Of a stretch of 46,969 bases of DNA, positions 18,755-46,077 are shown piece by piece (positions within the stretch are counted from its first letter, which is position 1; every line of letters starts with the position of its first letter). The notes under the pieces were generated by a model. That model saw only the letters and a program-made list of their open reading frames with translations, made no database searches and was not told the DNA's origin. Position numbers and translations under genes: made by a program. Origin of the DNA: a virus (Duplodnaviria; Heunggongvirae; Uroviricota; Caudoviricetes); the IMG/VR virus record IMGVR_UViG_3300045988_152627; one strand, 5' to 3'.

Positions 18755-19315
18755 TTATTCTTCCTGCTTAATAAATCGGGATTCCTGGAGCGCCTGAAGC
18801 GCAAAATTAATCTCGTCTTCAATAATGCGTTCGATCTCCCTGGCTGTTTTGCCTTCACAACGGGGAGCTGCTCTTGGAGCAATACTAAATAAGCGGCTAC
18901 GCAATTCATTAGCTGCCAGAAATGCATCATCCCTGACCGCATCTTTAGCGATGAGAGAGCCTTCCTTTTCTTCAAATTCAAGGCGTTTCAGCTTTGCCTG
19001 ATAAATTTTTTCTGCGGTCTTAGCCTTGTTGAATTGCACCGCAACACCGGAAGTACCACCAGCTAATCCGGCATCATCAGCGGGTAACTCTGGTTGTTCC
19101 GAAGATATCCCATGCCCTCTTTTTCCATTTTCAGCAGATACCTCACGACCAACCTGTCGGCTCGCTTCATAAGCCGCACTAGCTTTATCAAAATCCAGCT
19201 TGCCGCTTTTCAGCACTGGAATGCGACCGGAACGACAGAGCTTCGTAACCATTGCCGGAGAAATACCTTTCCGGCGGGCAAACTCTGACTTACTGACGAT
19301 GGCCATTACTTGCAA
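18755..19315 (-). CDS. Terminase small subunit, Nu1-like
   Basis: 186 aa with an N-terminal winged-HTH-like segment, immediately upstream of the large subunit. Confidence 0.6.
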   Translation of the reverse strand: MQVMAIVSKSEFARRKGISPAMVTKLCRSGRIPVLKSGKLDFDKASAAYEASRQVGREVSAENGKRGHGISSEQPELPADDAGLAGGTSGVAVQFNKAKTAEKIYQAKLKRLEFEEKEGSLIAKDAVRDDAFLAANELRSRLFSIAPRAAPRCEGKTAREIERIIEDEINFALQALQESRFIKQEE

Positions 19316-19896
19316 CCATTAGCAAGATACTGAACAAATCCCTCATGCGTTTCATGCGCGTCGTGGTACTGACGATAAACATCCAGCAACAATGCAATTT
19401 CCATATCCGTCGCGGGAATACGTTCTTTATCAATAGCCAGGTACTTAATTTGAACAACAGGGGAAGAATTATCGTCTTCTTCCTGCGGCTGTTCATCGCT
19501 TAACATTTCGTCAAGCTCTGCATCATTAAACCCAAGCAGATCAATATCAAAATCATCATCCATTAACTCTTTGACTTCTTCGGCCAGAAGCTGCATATCC
19601 CAGCCAGCATTTAAGGCCAGCTTGTTATCTGCAATCCTGTAAGCCTTCTTCTGTTTTTCAGAAAGGTTACTCAACCGAATCGCTGGAACTTTATCCATTT
19701 CCAGAATTTCGGCTGCTGCAAGCCGCCCATGCCCCGCAATCAGTTCATTCTTTTCATCGATCAGCACAGGATTAGTGAAACCGAACTCACGGATACTGTT
19801 CACCAACTGTTCAACCTGCTCATCTGAATGAGTCCGTGAATTTTTGGCGTATCTGAGCAGCTTACCGACTGGTAAATATTCGATTTTTAGAGCCAT
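19306..19896 (-). CDS. ParB/Srx-like nuclease-domain protein
   Basis: 196 aa; N-terminal ParB-box-like IDEKNELIAGHGRLAAAEIL. Confidence 0.75.
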   Translation of the reverse strand: MALKIEYLPVGKLLRYAKNSRTHSDEQVEQLVNSIREFGFTNPVLIDEKNELIAGHGRLAAAEILEMDKVPAIRLSNLSEKQKKAYRIADNKLALNAGWDMQLLAEEVKELMDDDFDIDLLGFNDAELDEMLSDEQPQEEDDNSSPVVQIKYLAIDKERIPATDMEIALLLDVYRQYHDAHETHEGFVQYLANGCK

Positions 19897-21188: not shown

Positions 21189-22568
21189 CTACTTAATCAA
21201 CGGCCGGAAAGCCGCCAGCACATCATCAGATCGTCCGATTGTTGAACCACCAGGCAACGGCAACTCAAACTCAAAACGAACAGCTTTCTCCAGACTCGCC
21301 CAACTAAGGGAATCATCGTTAATGACGTGCAAATACCAGCTCTTACAGTTGAATATTGACCGCTTAATCCTGAAACCATGTACACGACACAACTGCTTCA
21401 CTTCATCATCAGAGTGAAACTTCTGGTAAAACCAGTGCCCCTTCCGGTACAACGCGGTAAAACCGTTATGATCAATAAAATAAAGCCGGCTTTTGGAACT
21501 CGCCGCTTGTGTTTGCTTCAGGACTGTTTCCAGCTCTCCACGGCTACGACCAGAAAAGAATATTGACCCACCAGCTTTACACAGGCCTTTCAGAACCGTC
21601 AGAACGGACCATTCAGCCTCGACACTATCGACCGAGTTCAAAACGCTATCGCAAATCACGTAGTCGTAACGCCCTCGCGTTTTTAAGTCGTCCACCAGCG
21701 TATCAATCATCCAGTTTGTTGCGGCCCTATCCAGAGTGTTTCCAGCGCCCTTACGGCGGAAAAGCTCGAGATCATGCAGGTTATATCCCTTTGCCCTGAG
21801 CATTCGCGCGTAGTCTCCCTGCCCCGAACCAAAATCAATTCCTCTTGGCGTCTTGGCAATGATCGGGAGGATCAACGACTCATACAGGTTTGATTTCAGG
21901 CTGCCACCATTACGCAACCGCATAAGCTGCGCATACGTCTGGATGTATGTTGTTTTCTCCAGATGAGAATACTCAAATACACCATAAGTTTTATTCAGAT
22001 AACTTTGGTATTTTTCCTTCTCAACATCAGGGATCACAAACACCGTTAGCGGTGTGCGCGTCATCTTCGCTGCTAATGCATACTGAGCACAGTGAATAAC
22101 CTCGCCAGACTGAGTAGCAACACACCCCCCCCACGGACCATACTTGATAACCAGTTCCGCTATGTTCTTTCGAACATATGCCATTTTCGCGCGCATATTG
22201 CCTGAGATCTGGCTTGCCGATACCTGAACAAAACCATGCTTATCTTCCAGACCGGACACCCTGCAACGCTCATCTCCGCTATCAAAATCCGTTCCGTTAT
22301 GCAGTTGGTTAAACCGTACTTCGTCGTATACCGTCGTTTCACAGGGCAACACATACACCGCAGCACGCGTTATTCCCAACTTACGTAGCGCCTTCGTCCT
22401 TTGGTGTCCCGCCACCAGCAAATCGCCGCGCACTATCAATGGCTTCACAAGCCCTAGCTCCCTGACGCTTTCCGCCAGCCTCGCAAGATCATCCTCACCG
22501 ATAAAACGCGGGTTATATTCCGCACCGCGTAGGTGCGTTATGTCGTAATTGAGGTGAAGCATCAGCAC
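21189..22568 (-). CDS. ParB/Srx-like domain fused to a class I SAM-dependent methyltransferase
   Basis: 459 aa; N-terminal LIVRGDLLVAGHQRTKALRKLG (ParB-like); C-terminal IDFGSGQGDYARML (motif I) and DYVICDSVLNSV; no DPPY/NPPY motif seen. Confidence 0.7.
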   Translation of the reverse strand: MLMLHLNYDITHLRGAEYNPRFIGEDDLARLAESVRELGLVKPLIVRGDLLVAGHQRTKALRKLGITRAAVYVLPCETTVYDEVRFNQLHNGTDFDSGDERCRVSGLEDKHGFVQVSASQISGNMRAKMAYVRKNIAELVIKYGPWGGCVATQSGEVIHCAQYALAAKMTRTPLTVFVIPDVEKEKYQSYLNKTYGVFEYSHLEKTTYIQTYAQLMRLRNGGSLKSNLYESLILPIIAKTPRGIDFGSGQGDYARMLRAKGYNLHDLELFRRKGAGNTLDRAATNWMIDTLVDDLKTRGRYDYVICDSVLNSVDSVEAEWSVLTVLKGLCKAGGSIFFSGRSRGELETVLKQTQAASSKSRLYFIDHNGFTALYRKGHWFYQKFHSDDEVKQLCRVHGFRIKRSIFNCKSWYLHVINDDSLSWASLEKAVRFEFELPLPGGSTIGRSDDVLAAFRPLIK

Positions 22569-23185
22569 ACCTCCCCAGCCAGCAATGCGGATACAAATCC
22601 GATATAGCTGCCATTATCATCAACATAACGAGACACCGCGCAGTCAAAACGATCCGCTTCCTCATCCGTTGCCGGGATTTTATGACCTCCAAATGACAGG
22701 TACTGAACTTTTACGCCTGATTTGGCCTCATCCTTCTCAAATGGGATATCCATACCCTCTGTGTCATCGTAGACCGCCGCACTCAATAAGTTATCCAGTT
22801 CGCGCTGAGTAAAACCAATTGAGTCCAGAGCAAAATCATCGGCCGCAAGATCTGCAAGCTCCGCGCTTAACAACTCTTCATCCCAACCAGCATTCAGCGG
22901 AATACGGTTGTCGGCCAGACGATATGCCTTCTTCTGATTCTCCGTTAGCCCTTCCAGAACAATGCAGGGAACATCATCCATCCCCAACTGAGTGGCCGCA
23001 GCAATTCGACCATGACCAGCAATTACAACGTTGTTCTCGTCTATCAGGATCGGATTAGTCCATCCGTACTCCTGTATGCTGGCAACAATCTGATCTACCT
23101 GCTCCACGGAGTGTGTGCGAGCGTTCTTTTCATAACCAATCAACACAGAAAGTGGTAAAGAAACCACATTAAGATGTTTTGTCAT
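22562..23185 (-). CDS. ParB/Srx-like nuclease-domain protein (paralogue of 19306..19896)
   Basis: 207 aa; LIDENNVVIAGHGRIAAATQLG and overall collinear similarity to the 196-aa ParB-like protein. Confidence 0.75.
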   Translation of the reverse strand: MTKHLNVVSLPLSVLIGYEKNARTHSVEQVDQIVASIQEYGWTNPILIDENNVVIAGHGRIAAATQLGMDDVPCIVLEGLTENQKKAYRLADNRIPLNAGWDEELLSAELADLAADDFALDSIGFTQRELDNLLSAAVYDDTEGMDIPFEKDEAKSGVKVQYLSFGGHKIPATDEEADRFDCAVSRYVDDNGSYIGFVSALLAGEVC

Positions 23186-25081: not shown

Positions 25082-25200
25082 CGGGTTATCTCCGGTTTAA
25101 CCAGGGCGGGTATCGCTCGGTTTCGGGTATAACATTAGGAAATTTTTTCCCACCTGTAAAGTACTTTTTATATAATTATATAATTATATAATTCTATGAC
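25082..25200 (-). promoter_or_regulatory. Promoter-leader cassette copy 1 (TTTACA-N17-TAATGT, about 50-nt leader, RBS GGAGAT)
   Basis: Minus-strand -35 at 25155..25160 and -10 at 25132..25137; near-identical to 32154..32275 and 42784..42900; (TATATAAT)x3 upstream of the -35. Confidence 0.6.
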
Positions 25201-25781
25201 ACTTGCCAGAGAGCATCATGCAACTGGATACCTCCATTGCACTGGTTGCCCCAGCCATGCCAGCCATCAGGTAAATCACCGCGAGCAAACAACTCAATAC
25301 GAGGAACATCGCCTAACAGCTTTACCAGCTTGTCACGGACCACATCAGGCTTCCGAGAATGCTCCAGACGAGGCGATGTAAACGACTGAATAATCCCCGC
25401 ATCAAGGCGGGTTGGCAGTTTGCCTTTTACCGCAAACAAGCAATCTTCACTGTTTGCACGAGTCATATGCCCCATCCCCATCACCAGCTTATCTGGTTGT
25501 CGGCTACCACATTTGTTCCATGTGAAGCCCTTCATGGTCATAAGCCTGAATCCCCATGCTTTCACCACCAGCAACGCTTCTTCTGGCTGAGTCGGAACCC
25601 ACCACATGGCCAACAAACACGATTCAGGATTAGCAAGCTGCCAGACAGGAATACGAGCAATCTCCTCAGCTTTCATCGTTGGATACTTAAAACCAGCGCC
25701 ACGATTCCCATCCTTACACTTGTCTTTGTATTCCCAGGGGGGATCTGCATAAATCAGATTAAACAATGCAATTGCCTCCAT
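25194..25781 (-). CDS. DNA N6-adenine methyltransferase, MT-A70 family
   Basis: 195 aa with the N-terminal DPPW motif (LIYADPPWEY). Confidence 0.75.
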   Translation of the reverse strand: MEAIALFNLIYADPPWEYKDKCKDGNRGAGFKYPTMKAEEIARIPVWQLANPESCLLAMWWVPTQPEEALLVVKAWGFRLMTMKGFTWNKCGSRQPDKLVMGMGHMTRANSEDCLFAVKGKLPTRLDAGIIQSFTSPRLEHSRKPDVVRDKLVKLLGDVPRIELFARGDLPDGWHGWGNQCNGGIQLHDALWQVS

Positions 25782-26083: not shown

Positions 26084-26159
26084 TTGGTGGCCCCTACCGG
26101 ATTTGAACCGATGACCGTGCGATTATGAGTCGCCTGCTCTAACCACTGAGCTAAGGGGC
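26084..26159 (-). tRNA. tRNA with CAU anticodon, most similar to tRNA-Ile2 (ileX-type); elongator Met not excluded
   Basis: 76-nt cloverleaf GGCCCCTTAGCTCAGTGGTTAGAGCAGGCGACTCATAATCGCACGGTCATCGGTTCAAATCCGGTAGGGGCCACCA: 7-bp acceptor stem, D and T arms, CTCATAA anticodon loop, encoded CCA. Confidence 0.85.
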
Positions 26160-26329
26160 CATATTTGATCTGTTTGTCTGGTGTGGCGCCGCGCACGAAA
26201 ATCCCAGCCAATAAATTCAGGATTTTTGGGCGCGGCGGCATATCAGACAAACATGGTTGATGCGTGCGCCCATGAGAAAAGCGCATAGAATGTTGTAACT
26301 ATATATTTATATAATTATAGAAATATATA

Positions 26330-26539
26330 TTACTTTCGGCAGTTGATTTCCCATGCCCTGTTATGAGCCAGAATATCTTTCTTTGTCTGGCGGTCCATAA
26401 CATCGATGTCGTGATCAGTCAGGTAGATGGGCTTTACCCAATCACAGGCGGTATCAACCACCACCGGGACGCTTCCACGACTCCCGCAGCTCGCGATCAA
26501 CATCGTCATCAGCCATATGGTTAACACTCTGCTGTACAT
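26330..26539 (-). CDS. o-spanin (Rz1-like lipoprotein)
   Basis: 69 aa with signal peptide and lipobox LIASC; partly nested in the 3' end of the Rz-like gene in another frame. Confidence 0.55.
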   Translation of the reverse strand: MYSRVLTIWLMTMLIASCGSRGSVPVVVDTACDWVKPIYLTDHDIDVMDRQTKKDILAHNRAWEINCRK

Positions 26540-30730: not shown

Positions 30731-31029
30731 GCCACAGCCCCTCTCAACGGCTTAACTTTGGCTAATAAGGTGTTAAACAACATGGAGTTAGGATTCATGC
30801 CAAATGGCAATTCCGGTTTAGCGGAGTAGTACAGGCAACCATTTATTTTCCTGGTTGTTATCTGTCCTTCGGCAACCATGCTTCTCAGTCTGCAACGCAT
30901 AGAGTTCTGCGACACACCAATGTGCTCCGCGATTACGTCCACTTTTGAACATGGGTGATCGGTCAGGAAATTAATCACATCTTGGGGGTTAATAATTTTG
31001 CGTTTCATTGTCGAGGCGTCCTTATACAT
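30727..31029 (-). CDS. Hypothetical DNA-binding protein (winged-helix-like)
   Basis: 100 aa; central segment IAEHIGVSQNSMRCRLRSMVAEGQI resembles a winged HTH. Confidence 0.4.
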   Translation of the reverse strand: MYKDASTMKRKIINPQDVINFLTDHPCSKVDVIAEHIGVSQNSMRCRLRSMVAEGQITTRKINGCLYYSAKPELPFGMNPNSMLFNTLLAKVKPLRGAVA

Positions 31030-31085
31030 TTATATAAATATATAATTCTATATACGGCGGGAGACATCCCGCCGTAGGCTTACTG

Positions 31086-32153
31086 TCAGGCTTTCAATAG
31101 CGATTCTTTCAGATATCGGGCATCAGCCAGGGCGTTTGGAGTAATCTTGCGAACCCATGCATTACGGGTTGGACTCCACTTAAAGGCGCGTGATTTAAGC
31201 AGCGAACGAATGTTTGCCTCTGGTTTGCCAGGGAAATAAAACAGGATGCGGTTATCCTCTGGATCTATCTCCATAGAAAAGCCGTCGTATTCTTCGCGCT
31301 GTGCTCCTGTTACAGACTTGACCGATTCAAGCTCCTTAATACGGCTCTGTAGTCGTTTGATTTCGGCGTTATTGTTGCTCAGTGCGTATGAAGGGAATCC
31401 GATGCGCCCACAGAAATCTCCGGCCAGTAACTCTTTGGCTTCGCTTTCTGTAAACCTGAGATCGATTAATGCAGAAAGCTGCTGTAATTGGTCTTTTTTG
31501 TATTTGCGAATGGCCTTATTTGCGGCCTTCATTTTGACGTGTGACTTCATGCAGCCTTGCAGCTTACGAAGCAACTTAAATAGCGCATCAGGATCATCAG
31601 ACGAAATTCCATTACGACCAACACCTGCGGCTTTGCTCTCGTAGTGTGATGCTTTACTTTCGCATTCAACAAACGTTTTTCTGAATAACGCATCAGCTTT
31701 AGACAAACGGCGGCGATGGCCTTTCGCGCTATAATGGTCAACTAAAATCGGCTGGCCTAACGGGATCACATCCAACAGGTCATGCGCTCGCTTATGCGCT
31801 ACCGCACCTTCTTTTCTGGCTTTTTCTGCACGAGCAATATATCGGGCAAGACGCGCGTTCTGGCGTTCCTGATAGGTGTTTACGTAATCATCTCCGCGCT
31901 GCTGCTGTTCAAGCCATGCTTTGCGCAGATCTTCTGTTACGTCCACCAGCTCCGCAGGGATACAACCAGTTTGGGCTTCATAAGAGTAACCATCCTCATA
32001 GATACGCCCATCGTCTTCAACAAAGAAAAAGGTTTCGTGCTCATCGCTTTTGACCATACGACCATTAACATGGCGTAATAGGTAGCCAGTATCAGTGCTT
32101 AACAGGCTGTTAGGGTTGTTGATCCAGTCAGAAATAATTACTTGTTTATTCAT
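31086..32153 (-). CDS. Hypothetical protein (DUF3560-like?)
   Basis: 355 aa; first gene after promoter-leader cassette copy 2; family assignment by recall only. Confidence 0.4.
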   Translation of the reverse strand: MNKQVIISDWINNPNSLLSTDTGYLLRHVNGRMVKSDEHETFFFVEDDGRIYEDGYSYEAQTGCIPAELVDVTEDLRKAWLEQQQRGDDYVNTYQERQNARLARYIARAEKARKEGAVAHKRAHDLLDVIPLGQPILVDHYSAKGHRRRLSKADALFRKTFVECESKASHYESKAAGVGRNGISSDDPDALFKLLRKLQGCMKSHVKMKAANKAIRKYKKDQLQQLSALIDLRFTESEAKELLAGDFCGRIGFPSYALSNNNAEIKRLQSRIKELESVKSVTGAQREEYDGFSMEIDPEDNRILFYFPGKPEANIRSLLKSRAFKWSPTRNAWVRKITPNALADARYLKESLLKA

Positions 32154-32275
32154 CAGATTTCTCCGGTTTAACCAGGGCGGGTATCGCTCGGTTTCGGTTA
32201 TAACCTTAGGAAATTTTTTCCCACCTGTAAAGCACTTTTTATATAAATCTATAATTATATATTTATAGATTTTCG
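32154..32275 (-). promoter_or_regulatory. Promoter-leader cassette copy 2, directly downstream of the Q-like gene
   Basis: Same sequence as copies 1 and 3 with a few substitutions (TAAGGT at the -10 position); TATAAATCTATAATTATATA motif upstream. Confidence 0.55.
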
Positions 32276-34673: not shown

Positions 34674-34847
34674 TTAACGAACTCCAATTAAAACCACGAT
34701 ATGTGGTATTAAAACCACATATCGTGAGTTTTTCAATGGGCGAAACAAAAAATAACCTTCTAATTGTGGTCCACCTCTCGTCTTACCATGTGAAAACCAC
34801 TAAATGTGGTAATGTATAAATAACCCACCATTCACGATTGATGAGAC
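34674..34847. promoter_or_regulatory. Immunity-region operator/promoter block with three CCAC-N5-GTGG-type operators
   Basis: ACCACGATATGTGGT (34693..34707), ACCACATATCGTGAG (34713..34727), ACCACTAAATGTGGT (34796..34810) between divergent repressor and Cro-like genes. Confidence 0.6.
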
Positions 34848-35504
34848 ATGAAAAGCAACGACGAGAACATCAAGAAAGAAATAGGTCTGCGCATTCAGAC
34901 TCTACGGAAACAATCCGGCATGACTGCCGGAGATCTCCAGCAAGTCACTGGAATAGGCTTAAGCACCTTGCAGAACTATGAGGCCGGATTAAGACAACCA
35001 TCTATACCTGCCATCAAGAAAATCGCGCACGCCCTGAAAGCATCAGCGCCTTATATCGCGTGCTTAACAGATAACCCGTTCCCACCCCAGAATACTAACG
35101 CTCCTGTTATTCCTGGGCTTGTAGCTATAAAAAATGACATAGCATCGCACGCCGGAGAAAAGCCAGTGCTGGCGATAGAACAGGAGATTCTACGAAGCAA
35201 GAACATCAACCCATCGTCTCTGTCAGTTCTCCAGAGCAACGATGAGTTAATGTCACCAACAATATCCCCAGGCTCCCAAGTCCTGATTAATACAGACGAT
35301 ACAGAGATTCATGAGGGGATCTATGCCCTTGAAGACAGAAATGGCCTGGTTGTTTTGAGGCACTGTAGAGTCATACCGGGTGACAATGCTGTTATGCTGT
35401 CAACCGAAAGGGATGCTGAAATGAACACTAATCATCTGAATAACGAGGAATTTAAGCGTTATAAAGTTCTTGGCCGCGTAGTTAGTGTTGTCAACTGGTT
35501 ATGA
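34848..35504 (+). CDS. CI-like repressor (XRE HTH + S24/LexA-like C-terminal domain)
   Basis: 218 aa; HTH TAGDLQQVTGIGLSTLQNYEAG; C-terminal LexA/UmuD-like layout ending KVLGRVVSVVNWL. Confidence 0.8.
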   Translation: MKSNDENIKKEIGLRIQTLRKQSGMTAGDLQQVTGIGLSTLQNYEAGLRQPSIPAIKKIAHALKASAPYIACLTDNPFPPQNTNAPVIPGLVAIKNDIASHAGEKPVLAIEQEILRSKNINPSSLSVLQSNDELMSPTISPGSQVLINTDDTEIHEGIYALEDRNGLVVLRHCRVIPGDNAVMLSTERDAEMNTNHLNNEEFKRYKVLGRVVSVVNWL

Positions 35505-35596: not shown

Positions 35597-35971
35597 ATGG
35601 AATTACATACAGCCAATAAAAACGAAACTCTGATCACTGCTGGAATCGAAATCCAAGCGTTGAACATAGCGATTGAGTGTATGTTATGCCAAATCATTGA
35701 TAATGAGAAAGATATCGACTGGATAGAATCTATCCTTCATCTGGCATCAGAACAAAAAGTCTGCCTCAAAACGGCCTTACAATACGATGTGCCAGCGGTA
35801 TCGAAGCTGTGCCAGCCATTGATGGCATATAACAGGGCTATTACTTCTGTATGCCTCATGATTCTTGATGAAAACACCCCTCTTAGTGACCGCTCAGAAG
35901 CTGCTCTAACCCTCTCACGTAAACAGCGACAGCTAGCAAATCAACTGATATCAACGATAGCTGACCTCTGA
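35597..35971 (+). CDS. Hypothetical protein in the rex-equivalent position downstream of the repressor
   Basis: 124 aa ORF with strong RBS, followed by terminator hairpin 35976..35999. Confidence 0.45.
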   Translation: MELHTANKNETLITAGIEIQALNIAIECMLCQIIDNEKDIDWIESILHLASEQKVCLKTALQYDVPAVSKLCQPLMAYNRAITSVCLMILDENTPLSDRSEAALTLSRKQRQLANQLISTIADL

Positions 35972-36106
35972 CTGAAAGCGGGCTAACGCCCGCTTATATG
36001 ATTATAGATTTATATAATTATATAAAACGCTTTTCATCCGCCAAAAAGTTGGTTATGCTTACCTCGTTCTATAAATATAGATTTATAGAATTATATAACC
36101 AAACAC

Positions 36107-36775
36107 ATGGAGTCTCGACAAATGACTATCTCTGTAGGTATTTTCAACGGAAAAGGCGGCGTAACCAAATCAACAATTGCCCGTGCTTTAGCAGTTGCTT
36201 ATGCAAAGGCCGGCTGGAATGTATGCCTGATCGATATGGATGTGCTTAACGGAACGGTAACGCGTTGGGTACAACGCAGAATGGCCAACAATATCGAACC
36301 TGCAATCGCGGCGCAGCCGTGCGGCACGCCATCACAAGTCCAGAAAATCATCGAATCAGAAGTATACGACCTGGTTATCGTTGATGGCGGTGCCTACGCA
36401 TCTGAATCAGTACCGAAGCTCTCTGAATTTCTGGATATGGTTATTTTGCCAACCAGATTCTCTACCGATGACCTAGAAACCACCGTTAACACAGCTCACG
36501 GCATCGTTAAAAAGGGTGTACCAATCAAGAAAATTTGCATGGTGTTTTCCGGCGCGGCTGAAAACGAAGCTGACTATATTGAAGCCCAAGAGTACCTGGC
36601 TAATACGCCATACTTTGTTGTCGATAAGTACATTCCCCACAAGCCAGCTCTGAGCAAAGCTCAGGATAAGGGCTTAAGCCTCATTGAGTGCTCATACGTT
36701 GCGCCACGCAAAAAGGCAGACGACGTTATTCAGGGGATTATCAACCAGCTTGAGGCTCTGACTACTGCCGCGTAA
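36107..36775 (+). CDS. parA: ParA-family partition ATPase (small, type Ib)
   Basis: 222 aa with deviant Walker A NGKGGVTKST and later VIVDGGA motif. Confidence 0.85.
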   Translation: MESRQMTISVGIFNGKGGVTKSTIARALAVAYAKAGWNVCLIDMDVLNGTVTRWVQRRMANNIEPAIAAQPCGTPSQVQKIIESEVYDLVIVDGGAYASESVPKLSEFLDMVILPTRFSTDDLETTVNTAHGIVKKGVPIKKICMVFSGAAENEADYIEAQEYLANTPYFVVDKYIPHKPALSKAQDKGLSLIECSYVAPRKKADDVIQGIINQLEALTTAA

Positions 36776-36818
36776 TATATAATTATAGTTTTATAGATTT
36801 ATATAAGATGGGATACAC

Positions 36819-37067
36819 ATGGCCGCACCATCAAAACCACCAAAGAAGAACAGCAAAGGCGTACCGCCATCGATCGAACAACCGCAGGTTTTCGACCCGA
36901 CTGAAACGCCAACCAGAACCAAATCAGGTGGGGCACAAATGGCGTTTAACGTCGACCCTGAATTTAAACGCGAGTACAAAACGTTCGCCAGCTCAATGGA
37001 TATGTCATTGAAAGAAGTGCTGACAAAATCTTTTGAGTTACTCAAGGCTCAATACAACCAGAAGTAA
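36819..37067 (+). CDS. ParG-like ribbon-helix-helix centromere-binding protein
   Basis: 82 aa; Pro/Lys-rich tail then RHH-like MAFNVDPEFKREYKTFASSMDMSLKEVL; directly downstream of parA. Confidence 0.6.
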   Translation: MAAPSKPPKKNSKGVPPSIEQPQVFDPTETPTRTKSGGAQMAFNVDPEFKREYKTFASSMDMSLKEVLTKSFELLKAQYNQK

Positions 37068-37096
37068 GAGAAGGTGACGGCCTCCAGCGCCAACTG

Positions 37097-37279
37097 TTGG
37101 CCGTCGCGACACAACAAGGGGAATTTGTTATGTCCGAGCAACAATATACACGGTTACTAAAAACTCGTCTAATAGACCTCAAACGGCTGCAAGCTGGCCG
37201 CTTATTTGCCCTGCTATCCACCAGGCCAGAATGGGTACGTGAAGCAGTTCTGAAAGGCTTAATGCGCTCCAGCGTTTAA
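37097..37279 (+). CDS. Hypothetical small protein
   Basis: 60 aa ORF followed by terminator hairpin 37296..37311. Confidence 0.3.
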   Translation: MAVATQQGEFVMSEQQYTRLLKTRLIDLKRLQAGRLFALLSTRPEWVREAVLKGLMRSSV

Positions 37280-37295
37280 ATTCAACCATAAAAAA

Positions 37296-37311
37296 GGCCC
37301 CCGAAGGGGCC
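37296..37311. terminator. Bidirectional terminator hairpin GGCCCCCGAAGGGGCC
   Basis: Perfect GC-rich hairpin flanked by an A-run upstream and T-rich sequence on the opposite strand. Confidence 0.55.
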
Positions 37312-37877
37312 TAATCGCTACTTGCTGCTAATGTTTATCGTCACATTCAGAGCGTTATCAGTAATCTTCCAACCCTCCCCATGTGGCGTAAACAAAGCCC
37401 CAGTAACAACGATAAAAATACACATACAGTATTTTTTCATTGTATGGCCCTTACAGGCCGTTTCACGGCATCCCCACCGACGAAAACAACGCGAGAGCAA
37501 GCACGGCTGCTTGTGCTTGCATGTACGGCAACAGGAAATCCTCCCCTAAAGTCGGTGCCCGGGTGCGAATCGGCGGGAAGGTCCACAGGTATTTTACGAT
37601 TATTTTAAGATTAGTAATAGGAAATAAATTAAACGAAAAAACCAGTTTATTTTCACAAAATCAGTAACCTACCCACAATCTGTGAGTTTGCAGACACAAC
37701 AAGAACCACAATTTTTTGAAGCATAATAGTGGACTATTATTACCTTTTGGGTAAAATCAACTTGCTGCTTGTGCTTGCGTGGTTGTTTATACAACAACGT
37801 AATGCTGAAAGGACCGCGAATCCGATCAGCACGAAAGAACCGTCCTCAATAGGGCGGTTTTTTTGTTTCTTCACTCA

Positions 37878-38569: not shown

Positions 38570-38864
38570 TGTCTCTGTTAAAATCCCGCCGTATTGACAT
38601 GAATGCGCCATTGGTGGACACTTTCCGAGCCGTAGCAAAATCTACGGTCGGGATTAGCCTCCTGAATAACACGATGGCGCATACCGCGTTAGCGGTTTTT
38701 TTATGCGTAGAGCACTGTTACGCCCAAATTATGGTGGGTCGTACAGGGGCGGAGAAATCCGCGCCGGTTCGTCATTGTGTCCGGTAAGGCTAACCCTGTA
38801 CGGCTCACCACCATTTGATTAGCCTCGAATGGCGGTGATAGTTCCATATATTGGAGATATCACA

Positions 38865-39056
38865 ATGACAAACTTACCCCATGACTATTACGTCAACCTC
38901 GTAAAGATCCTTCTCAAGAAAGCCTCATACGCCGATAAATTCCGCCTGGCTGAAATAATCGAGCGCGAAGCTATGCGCATCGCCAGCAACGATAACGCTG
39001 TTTCTGACGCAAAAATCTCCCTCGTAACCAAAGTAGTTATGGGAGGTGCAAAATGA
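38865..39056 (+). CDS. Hypothetical small protein, coupled to the antirepressor
   Basis: 63 aa from ATG 38865 (RBS GGAGAT); stop overlaps the antirepressor start. Confidence 0.35.
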   Translation: MTNLPHDYYVNLVKILLKKASYADKFRLAEIIEREAMRIASNDNAVSDAKISLVTKVVMGGAK

Positions 39057-40195
39057 AAACGCTTCCGACCGTTAACACCCTACAGCCTATCCTGCATAAC
39101 CAGATCCCCGTTATCACCACGGAGCTGCTTGCCAAACTATATGGCTGTAGCGTCGAATGTCTTCACAGAAATCACCACCGTAATAAGTCCCGGTTTACAG
39201 AAGGAAAACATTTCATAGTTGTAAAAGGTACAGATCTCCAAAGTTTGAAAATCTCTTTAAGAGATTTTCAAACCATCGCGAATAACGTTAGAAAGCTCAT
39301 CCTCTGGACCGAACGCGGGGCTGCACGTCACGCTAAAATGCTCGAAACCGATCAGGCATGGGATGTATTCGAACGGCTGGAAGACTGCTACTTCAACCAG
39401 AACGCGCAAACGGCCGCGACCGTAACCGTCTCACCAAACAATGCTCGTGAGGTTGTCGATACGCTCAACGCTAAACCAATGTATTACGTTAAGGTGTGCA
39501 ACAACGAGCCACTCACAACCTCAGCCGATGTTGCCCAAGCATTCAGCACCACAAACAATTCCATCGTTATGGCCATCGATGCGTTACGTATTCCTCGCAC
39601 AGCTGCGGCGCGTCACTTCTTTAAAGAACAACGACCGCTGGAAGGAAGCGACCGCGAAATAACAATCTATCGCATGACAAAAGACGGATTTACCTTGCTC
39701 ATGGAAAGTATCGACGGTCCAGGCGTGAAGGATATCAAGCTGGCCTACATTGAAGCCTTTAACGCTATCAGCAGCGTGTTAAAGGCAGAATACGAGCGAA
39801 TGCTATACAACCGACTGTATCAGGAAACAAAGATTATCCGAACGGCAACAGAACATCATCGGCTATTAACGGAACCAAACTACCGCAAGACACTAATCAA
39901 AGAATTTGACAAGGCGACGGAGAAAACTAAAGCGGCACTAAATCTACCAACAATGACTAAAGATGATGTGATATCAGCCTTACTTCTTGATCTGCTCAGA
40001 AACGCCAGAGCACTTATCAGTTTTGACGAAAACCTGAATCCTCAGCTCAAGCTACTACCACCGACAGGCAAAGTAGTCGACCAAGCAGATCACAACAGCA
40101 TACTCAGCGTACTGGATGCAAACCTGCCAGCCAGGACACTACAGGAGCTGATAAAAATATCTGCGGATAAACTGGCCGCAGGTGCAAAACCATAA
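39053..40195 (+). CDS. Phage antirepressor (KilA-N/ORF6N-like N-terminus plus Rha-like domain)
   Basis: 380 aa; N-terminal ITTELLAKLYGCS...KHFIVVKGTDL and central TSADVAQAFSTTNNSIVMAIDAL resembling the Rha motif. Confidence 0.65.
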   Translation: MKTLPTVNTLQPILHNQIPVITTELLAKLYGCSVECLHRNHHRNKSRFTEGKHFIVVKGTDLQSLKISLRDFQTIANNVRKLILWTERGAARHAKMLETDQAWDVFERLEDCYFNQNAQTAATVTVSPNNAREVVDTLNAKPMYYVKVCNNEPLTTSADVAQAFSTTNNSIVMAIDALRIPRTAAARHFFKEQRPLEGSDREITIYRMTKDGFTLLMESIDGPGVKDIKLAYIEAFNAISSVLKAEYERMLYNRLYQETKIIRTATEHHRLLTEPNYRKTLIKEFDKATEKTKAALNLPTMTKDDVISALLLDLLRNARALISFDENLNPQLKLLPPTGKVVDQADHNSILSVLDANLPARTLQELIKISADKLAAGAKP

Positions 40196-42402: not shown

Positions 42403-42783
42403 TTACTTAACGAGGAATAAAAATGGTTTATCGTTCGGCGGTGTACTCGGGGCTGGCTCGCTTTTGCTCATACGATCAGTGTACCAGGCCAGCTCCTTGT
42501 CAAAGTAAGCCTGATTAAAATAGGCCATGAATGTGGTTTCAAATCCATAACGACCGCTAATACGCAGCATCTGATTGCCGTTCTCTGTTTCCAGATATAC
42601 CTGGGCACGTTCCTGATTCTCCTTCAGCCAAGTTAAAGCCTCGTCGCACGAGGACACACGATACTCATCATCGTAGCCGTCATCGATGCGGCTTGAAGGA
42701 GAACGGCAAATCACGCCAACAGAACCAGCCAGGATAGTTTGAATTTTAAGGAAAGCGTTTTTGCGGATTTTAATCATGCTCAT
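42403..42783 (-). CDS. Hypothetical protein
   Basis: 126 aa; start codon sits exactly at the end of promoter-leader cassette copy 3. Confidence 0.4.
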   Translation of the reverse strand: MSMIKIRKNAFLKIQTILAGSVGVICRSPSSRIDDGYDDEYRVSSCDEALTWLKENQERAQVYLETENGNQMLRISGRYGFETTFMAYFNQAYFDKELAWYTDRMSKSEPAPSTPPNDKPFLFLVK

Positions 42784-42900
42784 CGGGTTATCTCCGGTTT
42801 AACCAGGGCGGGTATCGCTCGGTTTCGGGTATAACATTAGGAAATTTTTTCCCACCTGTAAAGCACTTTTATATAAATCTATAATTATATAATTCTATGA
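42784..42900 (-). promoter_or_regulatory. Promoter-leader cassette copy 3 (TTTACA-N17-TAATGT)
   Basis: Minus-strand -35 at 42857..42862 and -10 at 42834..42839; about 88 bp identical to copy 1 from the ATG up to the -35. Confidence 0.6.
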
Positions 42901-45054: not shown

Positions 45055-45903
45055 TTAATGCTGGAGTGATTTCCAGGTCTTTCTTAGCCTGTTATAACGC
45101 TGCTCAACGAGGGATCGTAAATATGCAAGGTCAGCTCCAGGATACATGCCATCAGCAAATTCCTGGCTAACCTCTCTAGTGATTTGATGACGAAGTTCGG
45201 CCTCTCCCTTTTCCCGAACAAGACGCGCAGCTCTCTCCGCTGCTTTCTGTTTTGCCTTTATCTCTCTAGCCGTCTTCCTCTGACGCCATACATTCTCCAT
45301 CTGCTCCTGAATAACAATACGCTTATAATCAGCCTCCGTTATCGCTTTTTTAAGCCGTTCGCTATTCTTCGCATTGAAGTAATTAAGTTTCTGGCTAACC
45401 GCACGTCTCCATGCTTGTTCAGTAATACCAACGGTTTCCAGAAGTTGATCACGAATCTCTATTTTCGCTGGCCAATACTGTTTATTCACCCGATCCCAGC
45501 GACGTTCATAATCAATAAAACCTAACGCTTTCAGTTGCGACAACGCCCTTGTACAGCGCGTTATAGACTTGTTCCCAGCTTCGGATACGGTAGACAGGCC
45601 GCAAAAATCAGCCAACGCCTCAGCACTGGCCAGAACCCGCTTAGAAATGATGTTTACATGGTGCAAAATCGCAGCAATCACAGCATTAATCGCCCGACGA
45701 CGATGCTCGTTTATCCGGCGTTTCCGCTCTGACGGTTGATTAACGTAGAACGCAACCTCACACGTAAGATCACGACCATTAATGCGCTGTAAAGCATCAG
45801 ATAACACCAGCGGCAGCTTGTGCGTATGGTGCTTTGGAGGCTGGAACTCCGGCGACAAATTACAAACGTAAGCTGAACGTAGAGACTGCATTGGTCTATC
45901 CAT
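45055..45903 (-). CDS. repA: Plasmid replication initiator RepA, IncFII RepA1 family
   Basis: Segment RRAINAVIAAILHH...GNKSITRCTRALSQLKALGFIDYE parallels RepA1 RRAIDALLQGL...GKLSITRATRALTFLSELGLITYQ; start taken at the internal ATG 45903 (about 282 aa); the longer ORF to 46041 overlaps the antisense RNA. Confidence 0.8.
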   Translation of the reverse strand: MDRPMQSLRSAYVCNLSPEFQPPKHHTHKLPLVLSDALQRINGRDLTCEVAFYVNQPSERKRRINEHRRRAINAVIAAILHHVNIISKRVLASAEALADFCGLSTVSEAGNKSITRCTRALSQLKALGFIDYERRWDRVNKQYWPAKIEIRDQLLETVGITEQAWRRAVSQKLNYFNAKNSERLKKAITEADYKRIVIQEQMENVWRQRKTAREIKAKQKAAERAARLVREKGEAELRHQITREVSQEFADGMYPGADLAYLRSLVEQRYNRLRKTWKSLQH

Positions 45904-45947
45904 ATGTTCGCTCTTGCGTCCACGGAAAACCAACGTATAATGGGAGT

Positions 45948-46036
45948 TGTCGAGGCGCCCATGGATTGTTGTTGGTTTTTGTTTCTTTCCGTGGATGTCG
46001 CAAGAAGCCCGCAGATTTATCTGCGGGCTTTTTGTT
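45948..46036 (+). ncRNA. CopA-like antisense RNA candidate (countertranscript to the repA leader)
   Basis: Plus-strand promoter TTGCGT-N16-TATAAT (45914..45941), stem-loop AAAACCAAC/GTTGGTTTT, and terminator hairpin AGCCCGCAGA-TTTA-TCTGCGGGCT plus T-run (46006..46036). Confidence 0.5.
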
Positions 46037-46077
46037 TCCATATCTGGTCACTTTCCAACCAGACACCCACAATCATA

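Follow-up and report, generated by a model that had tools for sequence, protein, structure and literature searches.

A predicted type Ib partition locus in a circular phage-plasmid, with phased repeat arrays at the par operon and at five other intergenic sites

The DNA described here is a stretch of 46,969 nucleotides from a tailed virus (Caudoviricetes), IMG/VR record IMGVR_UViG_3300045988_152627; we refer to the whole stretch as the window. Its par locus consists of a gene for a small ParA-type ATPase (parA, 36122..36775, + strand) followed directly by a gene for an 82-residue protein (36819..37067, +), a candidate centromere-binding protein with a disordered, basic N-terminal tail and a ribbon-helix-helix (RHH) domain. 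Three clusters of AT-rich repeats accompany the two genes. A preliminary description of the region had proposed a type Ib-like partition cassette, and both open reading frames (ORFs) and all three repeat clusters were located where it had placed them. Arrays of the same design lie at five other intergenic positions in the window, and among related elements the sequence of the repeated box varies together with the β-strand of the RHH protein, which leads us to propose that a single protein reads all of the arrays.

The parA gene encodes a small ATPase of the ParF-like type with a deviant Walker A motif (GKGGVTKST). An alternative ATG at 36107 gives a protein of 222 residues, the length assigned previously, but the start at 36122, which gives 217 residues, is probably the correct one, because GGAG at 36109-36112 sits 9 nt ahead of it and because both RefSeq and the homologues use it; the identification as a deviant Walker-A ParA stands, and the length is probably to be corrected. 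A profile built from seven homologues identified TP228 ParA/ParF (5u1g, 4dzz) as the best full-length solved relatives, with an E value of ~1e-10 over residues 5-212. The protein also matches Pfam CbiA/ParA/MipZ, and its match to NCBIfam ParA_partition falls below the family cutoff. It is small, has a deviant Walker A motif, and is without an N-terminal DNA-binding domain, as is typical of type Ib. A locus search seeded by the Walker-A peptide returned generic ParA/MinD loci and was not used.

On its own, the 82-residue protein gave no Pfam (E <= 0.1), NCBIfam, or PDB sequence match, and neither phmmer nor a narrow profile found anything relevant in the PDB. A word-indexed homologue search reached only relatives of at least 79% identity. 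More distant members could be reached only by an exhaustive profile search, which recovered 102 cluster representatives (~100 clusters at 50% identity), most of them 60 to 100 residues in length. When 83 relatives were aligned, Pfam matches were found to RHH_10 (43/83), Antitox_RHH (23/83), 56B_RHH (8/83), and, weakly, ParG (5/83). The best solved matches of the family profile were 2kel, a 56B RHH protein, and 1p94, which is ParG (E = 0.13), both in register, and hhalign aligned the family with the RHH segment of ParG at 78% probability, again in register. The AlphaFold2 (AF2) model made with the 83-sequence alignment has a disordered region covering the first 46 residues, followed by two helices, with a predicted local distance difference test score (pLDDT) of ~90 over residues 41-80; within the RHH domain the strand lies at ~40-45 and the helices at 47-59 and 64-80. 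This model superseded an earlier one made with a 10-sequence alignment, which had a pLDDT of 65 and for which Foldseek returned meaningless ribosomal chains. With the deeper model, nearly all Foldseek matches were RHH proteins (PutA, StnY, CdbA, CopG, ParG 1p94, ORF56, AmrZ, Arc, and ParD-type antitoxins), at probabilities of up to 0.99, root mean square deviations of 1-2 Å over ~43 residues, and target-normalised template modeling (TM) scores of up to 0.87; the E values of these matches are weak, the domain being so small.

The transitive Pfam matches, the in-register match to ParG, and the near-uniform RHH character of the Foldseek matches together support the assignment of the 82-residue protein as an RHH protein with a flexible N-terminal tail, and so bear out the earlier suggestion of a ParG-like RHH protein. 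It scores below the Pfam ParG (PF09274) threshold, however, and is not a member of the ParG sequence family. The protein would work like ParG, yet by sequence belongs to a separate RHH family. The basic tail contains a motif in which K13-G14 is invariant in diverged members, which is consistent, by analogy with ParG, with a tail that stimulates ParA. The gene carries only a hypothetical annotation in this family of phage-plasmids. Among other phage records, tblastn matched the RHH domain only in Erwinia phage LS-2018a (CP013974.1, 20051-20158; 50% over 36 residues, in two places), which may be another phage-plasmid that uses this RHH family.

The repeats had been described as palindromes, but they are better regarded as phased direct arrays, in each of which four TATA tetramers recur at an exact 8-bp spacing in units that are typically TATAGATT, TATATAAT, and TATATAAA. 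Array 1 (35995..36024, +) reads TATATGAT TATAGATT TATATAAT TATATAAA and ends ~7 bp before the -35 element of a putative par promoter (36031..36059, +). This promoter, read from the sequence and not picked up by a strict consensus scan, comprises TTTTCA (36031-36036), a 17-bp spacer, and TATGCT (36054-36059). Ahead of array 1, a G+C hairpin (GCGGGCTAACGCCCGC; 35978..35993, +) forms the end of the preceding gene (35597-35971), insulating the par operon; an equivalent hairpin is present at five related loci described below (L003, L004, L006, L007, and L008). The TATA boxes of array 2 (36068..36097, +) lie between the -10 element and the Shine-Dalgarno sequence, an operator position over the transcript start, and array 3 (36776..36806, +; TATATAAT TATAGTTT TATAGATT TATATAAG) lies in the gap that separates parA from the RHH gene. 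In relatives without such a gap, the third array is found downstream of the RHH gene. Arrays 1 and 2 flank the par promoter, and the order of the elements as a whole is what would be expected if autoregulation and a centromere were combined, as they are in TP228. The proposal that the repeats are plausible centromere and operator sites is thus strengthened, as a prediction, by their TP228-like geometry, by the sigma-70-like promoter that they flank, and by their covariation with the RHH strand. The type Ib reading gains likewise from the full-length ParF-like ParA, the RHH protein downstream, and the arrays at the operon.

The arrays are far in excess of expectation. With up to two mismatches allowed, TATAGATTTATA occurs 47 times in the window, compared with 5.6 expected, and 0/100 shuffles reached 47. 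Four TATA boxes at an 8-bp period are found at 8 loci in the window and at none in 100 shuffles; an unbiased scan, for any tetramer occurring three times at period 8, returned only the same 8 loci. The eight arrays occupy six intergenic loci, and four of them abut a -35 element. The preliminary description had noted the motif at the cassette and missed the 5/8 arrays that lie elsewhere in the window.

The element itself belongs to a family of circular ~48-kb plasmids represented in >60 records. Its par region is 98.4 to 98.6% identical to those of the Yersinia phages vB_YpM_39/41/44 (~49 kb, isolated on Yersinia pestis EV76, their genes almost all annotated as hypothetical) and is matched at 97.7 to 99.2% by 58 plasmids that are circular, non-mobilizable, and ~47-50 kb in size, which come almost exclusively from Escherichia and include a plasmid of Escherichia coli ATCC 25922; three further plasmid records match at 60 to 80%. 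The window encodes an IncFII-family RepA (45055-46041), a Hin-like invertase, a CI-like repressor with helix-turn-helix (HTH) and S24 domains (34848-35504), and phage proteins of myovirus type for lysis, terminase, portal, protease, capsid, and sheath. One complete relative has no annotated integrase. From the IncFII RepA, the circular plasmid records, the phage genes, and the lack of an annotated integrase, we conclude that the element is a circular phage-plasmid, with a full set of phage genes in addition to plasmid replication and partition genes. A partition system is therefore expected, and the view that the cassette is a plasmid feature is supported by the RepA, by the lack of an annotated integrase in the complete relative, and by the circular ~48-kb plasmid deposits.

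Three of the five arrays outside the cassette, all of which are intergenic, form part of a module of ~125 bp on the minus strand. The module consists of the array, AAAGTGC, TTTACA, a 17-bp spacer, TAATGT, a conserved 5' untranslated region (UTR), GGAG, and an ATG, and its array is placed relative to the -35 element just as at the par promoter, the layout of which is that of the module promoters. One module (42784..42899, array 42870-42899) leads to the ATG of a gene of no assigned function (42403-42783), with an HTH gene further on. A second (32154..32269, array 32240-32269) lies upstream of a DUF3560/primase-like gene (31086-32153), and the third (25083..25198, array 25169-25198) upstream of a block of leftward genes, comprising small genes and those for ParB-like nucleases, terminase, head, and tail. 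The two remaining arrays are found at 31023-31052 (-), between a terminator hairpin and a MarR-like gene with a probable start at 31008, and at 26300-26329 (no strand assigned), flanked by the end of the lysis cassette (stop at 26330) and, on the other side, by a tRNA-Met gene (26085-26160). Of the five dispersed arrays, two are near neighbors on the upstream side of the packaging and structural genes. The tRNA-Met gene (CAT, -) and a gene for an MT-A70 DNA methyltransferase (25194-25781, -) are situated between two arrays, apart from the lysis and the packaging and structural genes.

All eight array positions are kept in vB_YpM_39 and in the ATCC 25922 plasmid. At the same threshold, all five dispersed positions and 2/3 par arrays are recovered in a Salmonella relative (L093), the third being seen only in part, at the edge of the printed flank; the module sequence is down to 87% in this relative, and the arrays persist. 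The -10 element of the module diverges within TAnnnT, reading TAATGT in the window, TATGGT in L093, and TAGTAT in L008. Approximately 50 nt of the module leader (CCGAAACCGAGCGATACCCGCCCTGGTTAAACCGGAG) are nearly identical across its three copies (25083-25168, 32154-32239, and 42784-42869, -), and nearly all of 62 PLSDB relatives have three module copies per plasmid. No Rfam family corresponds to the module 5' UTR, the predicted fold of which is mildly better than that of shuffled sequences (z = -1.8 to -2.7), and the leader may carry a control element of its own.

The window also contains eight copies of the palindrome ACCAC-N5-GTGGT, compared with 0.8 expected, five of which are at 34693, 34796, 35547, 38555, and 46078. 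These sites, the probable CI operators, fall in the immunity region and ahead of a gene for a 124-residue protein, the C4/antirepressor region, and, at a distance of 37 nt, repA. They are absent from the module promoters. The copy ahead of repA suggests that plasmid replication, too, is under the control of the phage repressor.

Ten further loci of the RHH family (L003-L008 and L089-L092) were compared with the window, and the Salmonella relative L093 was added. L003, L004, L006, L007, and L008 are phage-plasmid relatives in which the order CI, unknown gene, ParA, and RHH gene is preserved, while on L005, a 1.6-kb fragment, ParA and the RHH gene are preceded by an ORF. L089 (Rep3/TrwC) and L091 (type IV secretion system coupling protein) are unrelated conjugative plasmids, L092 is a short contig with other neighbors, and L090 is without an adjacent ParA. 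In 9/9 loci with an adjacent ParA, arrays phased at 8 bp flank parA or its promoter, with a box sequence that varies. The variation follows strand residues 40/42/44 of the RHH protein. The combination Q-A-N is found with TATA boxes (window, L004, L093); P/A-N-N with TTTA boxes (CTTTAAAT; L003, L006, L008); L-T-N with ACAT/ATGT (L007); D-N-K with TCGCTA/TAGCGA (L005, L089); and P-N-K with TTCGTTA or TTCGTG (L091, L092). L005 and L089 have RHH proteins that are only 61% identical and lie on different backbones, yet have the strand residues and the box in common. Two further repeats are present in L091 (9022-9056 and 6239-6283), one a perfect tandem reiteration of the 8-bp unit TTTATTTC ~280 bp ahead of parA and the other of the form (GGACA)n.

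The same correspondence extends to the dispersed arrays. L003 has dispersed TTTA arrays at places comparable to those in the window, for example after the MT-A70 gene, and zero TATA arrays; the window, conversely, has zero TTTA arrays. The orthologous module, GCTTTACAGGTrGGAAA, is accompanied by TATA arrays in the window and L093 and by TTTA arrays in L008. Our main argument follows from this: since the dispersed arrays have changed along with the par arrays and the RHH strand, one protein would be expected to read all of them.

We consider it likely that the locus is the type Ib par cassette of a phage-plasmid and that its RHH protein also acts at the five other intergenic arrays, as an omega-like regulator, as a binder of dispersed centromeres, or as both. 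Its binding, its partition activity, and the direction of its regulation we infer by analogy. RHH dimers, one per TATA box, would coat the four-box arrays, as ParG and omega do at their own sites, and the basic, disordered tail would stimulate the ParA ATPase in the manner of ParG. Occupation of arrays 1 and 2 at the par promoter would bring about autorepression and, at the same time, assembly of the segrosome at the centromere. In the plasmid-prophage state the protein would also occupy the module promoters, functioning as a global regulator like omega and, most likely, repressing those promoters that have no CI operator. The module promoters are reasonably good sigma-70 promoters without CI operators, so that some other control is needed in the lysogen, and this favors repression by the RHH protein; activation is possible too, omega doing both by occupancy. 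In pSM19035, four contiguous repeats are the functional minimum of parS (PMC9499535), and each of the four-unit arrays could thus act as a centromere as well, in which case the dispersed arrays that serve regulation could double as dispersed centromeres.

Several points weigh against this interpretation. Arrays placed upstream of a -35 element are where activators and UP elements typically sit, so the sign of the regulation can be argued in both directions. The correspondence between strand and box is imperfect, in that P0028/L090 (P-N-N, no adjacent ParA) is found beside ACGAAA-type repeats, not TTTA. This case contradicts a simple three-residue recognition code, which we rejected, and what we claim is therefore covariation of box type with the RHH strand and not a code. 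Other proteins encoded by the element, such as the syntenic 124-residue protein, co-diverge in the phage-plasmid relatives; the link to the RHH protein in particular therefore rests on the cases with unrelated backbones. Finally, the literature searched contained no paper on vB_YpM_39 or on the element, although journals outside that search may hold some.

One alternative accepts the type Ib system but takes the five dispersed arrays to be extra centromere sites that raise segrosome loading and have no transcriptional role. There are precedents. N15 naturally uses four separate sites, IR1-4, as centromeres (PMC7205306, citing Ravin and Lane 1999); in TP228 the operator OF is a centromere as well as parH, and as few as four boxes, the number in each array here, still give about half of the activity (PMC3130281). 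Three of the arrays, however, are fixed against the -35 element of a conserved module, as at the par promoter, where autoregulation is predicted, and a pure centromere would need no such placement. We regard this alternative as rather unlikely in its strict form, and it is compatible with the regulatory interpretation rather than exclusive of it.

A more specific version of the regulatory interpretation, which also seems rather unlikely to us, makes the RHH protein a second, copy-number-sensitive repressor of lytic functions. It would saturate the 32 boxes per genome in the low-copy prophage and so silence the sigma-70 promoters outside CI control, including the one ahead of the packaging and structural genes; the rise in array number during lytic replication would then titrate out this autoregulated protein, and the promoters would fire. 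The partition machinery would in that case be a timer that ties genome copy number to late gene expression.

Binding of the arrays by some other factor, with the RHH protein reading something else, is a less probable explanation, to which we give little credence. The arrays are extremely AT-rich, and host H-NS, Fis, or IHF might bind such TpA tracts; the 124-residue protein (35597-35971) is another candidate, its gene always being ahead of parA in the phage-plasmid relatives. Generic binders of AT tracts would not be expected to give boxes that switch discretely while the 8-bp phasing stays the same. The TCGCTA box recurs with the D-N-K strand on the Rep3/TrwC conjugative plasmid, which has no gene for the 124-residue protein, and L091 and L092 have phased arrays at parA despite their different neighbors.

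It is more improbable still that the dispersed arrays are protein-independent promoter parts, such as UP elements or -10-like TATAAT sequences, and resemble the par arrays through duplication of a promoter cassette. Three of the sites are clearly duplicated 125-bp modules, and TATAAT hexamers, seen on the minus strand, are embedded in the arrays. On the other hand, four phased boxes stand without a module at 26300 and 31023. The equivalent arrays of L003 and L008, which are of the CTTTAAAT type and not -10-like, have changed together with those of the par locus, and the Salmonella module has diverged to 87% while its arrays persist.

Three ParB/Srx N-terminal-domain proteins encoded beside the small terminase gene (22562-23185, 21189-22568, and 19306-19896, -) match PHROG families named ParB-like partition protein or nuclease, but that one of these is the partner of ParA, and the 82-residue protein merely a transcription factor or an antitoxin-like RHH protein, is barely credible: they lie ~13-17 kb away among structural and packaging genes, one is annotated as fused to a methyltransferase in a relative, the 217-residue ParF-type ParA is without the N-terminal domain of type Ia, and the ParA-RHH gene pair is adjacent, often overlapping, and conserved on unrelated plasmids. 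On position, context, and ParA type we rejected them as its partner, and they are unlikely to be partition proteins at all.

Several neighboring features deserve mention. On the 3' side of the RHH gene (37076..37279, +) lie a conserved hairpin (37076-37105) and a 49-residue ORF (MSEQQYTRLLKTRL..., beginning MSEQQYTRL; 37130-37279). Both are also found after the RHH gene in L004, L006, L008, and L092; the sole family match of the ORF is to a weak PHROG of unknown function, and it is possibly a third component of the cassette. Directly downstream of par, Rfam identifies a ryfA RNA (143 bits, gathering score 80; 37290-37586, -) with a small hydrophobic ORF inside it (MKKYCMCIFIVVTGALF...), and this locus probably represents an addiction module based on a type I toxin (TimP-like). 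Further along, isrK (65.7 bits) and a C4 antisense RNA (70.8 bits) were identified at 38629-38815 (+), just upstream of an ORF6N/Rha antirepressor-like gene (39053-40195). This region looks like a c4-ant immunity module of the P1/P7 immI type, in a phage that has a CI-type repressor as well.

The phage-plasmid family is common in E. coli, where it includes the plasmid of the reference strain ATCC 25922, and is also represented by infectious phages on Y. pestis. If our interpretation is correct, the RHH protein would be the first counterpart of the omega global regulator to be ParG-like, Gram-negative, and phage-borne, and it would provide a concrete link between plasmid maintenance and the lysis-lysogeny program. 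The natural pairs of RHH strand and box (TATA, TTTA, ACAT, CGCT, CGTT) would also be of use for studying or engineering the DNA specificity of RHH proteins.

The literature searched described no phage-plasmid in which a type Ib centromere-binding protein has sites across the genome, although journals outside the search may hold some, and comparison is best made with systems that share part of the design. The closest is TP228 ParF/ParG, which has a similarly small deviant Walker-A ATPase and, downstream of it, an RHH protein of ~80 residues with a flexible N-terminal tail. In TP228, one ParG dimer binds to each ACTC tetramer box, successive boxes being set apart by 4-bp AT-rich spacers, and the operator and parH are both centromeres (PMC3130281). 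The tetramer boxes, the 4-bp AT-rich spacers that give an 8-bp period, the mixture of direct and inverted order, and the position upstream of the operon, as operator and centromere (PMC3130281), all have counterparts here, where the function of the arrays is predicted. The differences are that the box is TATA and not ACTC, that the arrays have four boxes where those of TP228 have 8 plus 12, that the window protein lies outside Pfam ParG, and that the arrays are scattered to other promoters.

In this last respect the element resembles the delta/omega/parS system of pSM19035, in which an RHH-type centromere-binding protein likewise has short contiguous repeat arrays in several promoter regions. 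Omega activates or represses by occupancy, and its sites in several promoter regions coordinate partition with other functions (PMC4627068). Omega was absent, however, among the PDB sequence matches of the RHH family profile. Its repeats are 7-bp heptads, compared with the 8-bp period here, and it belongs to Inc18 plasmids of Firmicutes rather than to a Gram-negative phage-plasmid. The additional sites also differ in what they precede, namely phage genes here (replication-like, regulator, tRNA/methylase, and packaging/structural) and copy-control or toxin-antitoxin genes in the case of omega.

N15 is similar in being a phage-plasmid with multiple sites for its partition protein spread through the genome; its centromere sites are reportedly dispersed across the phage genome. 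It is a linear element with a telomerase and has a type Ia system, consisting of a large SopA, an HTH protein, SopB, and single palindromes, whereas the element described here is circular, has an IncFII RepA, and combines a type Ib system with an RHH protein and phased arrays. MetJ, another RHH protein, coats tandem 8-bp met-box units cooperatively, with one dimer on each; it shares the 8-bp repeat with the arrays described here but has no partition ATPase as a partner. Set against these systems, the cassette itself is ordinary, and what stands out is the predicted eight-array regulon together with the series in which RHH strand and box vary in step.

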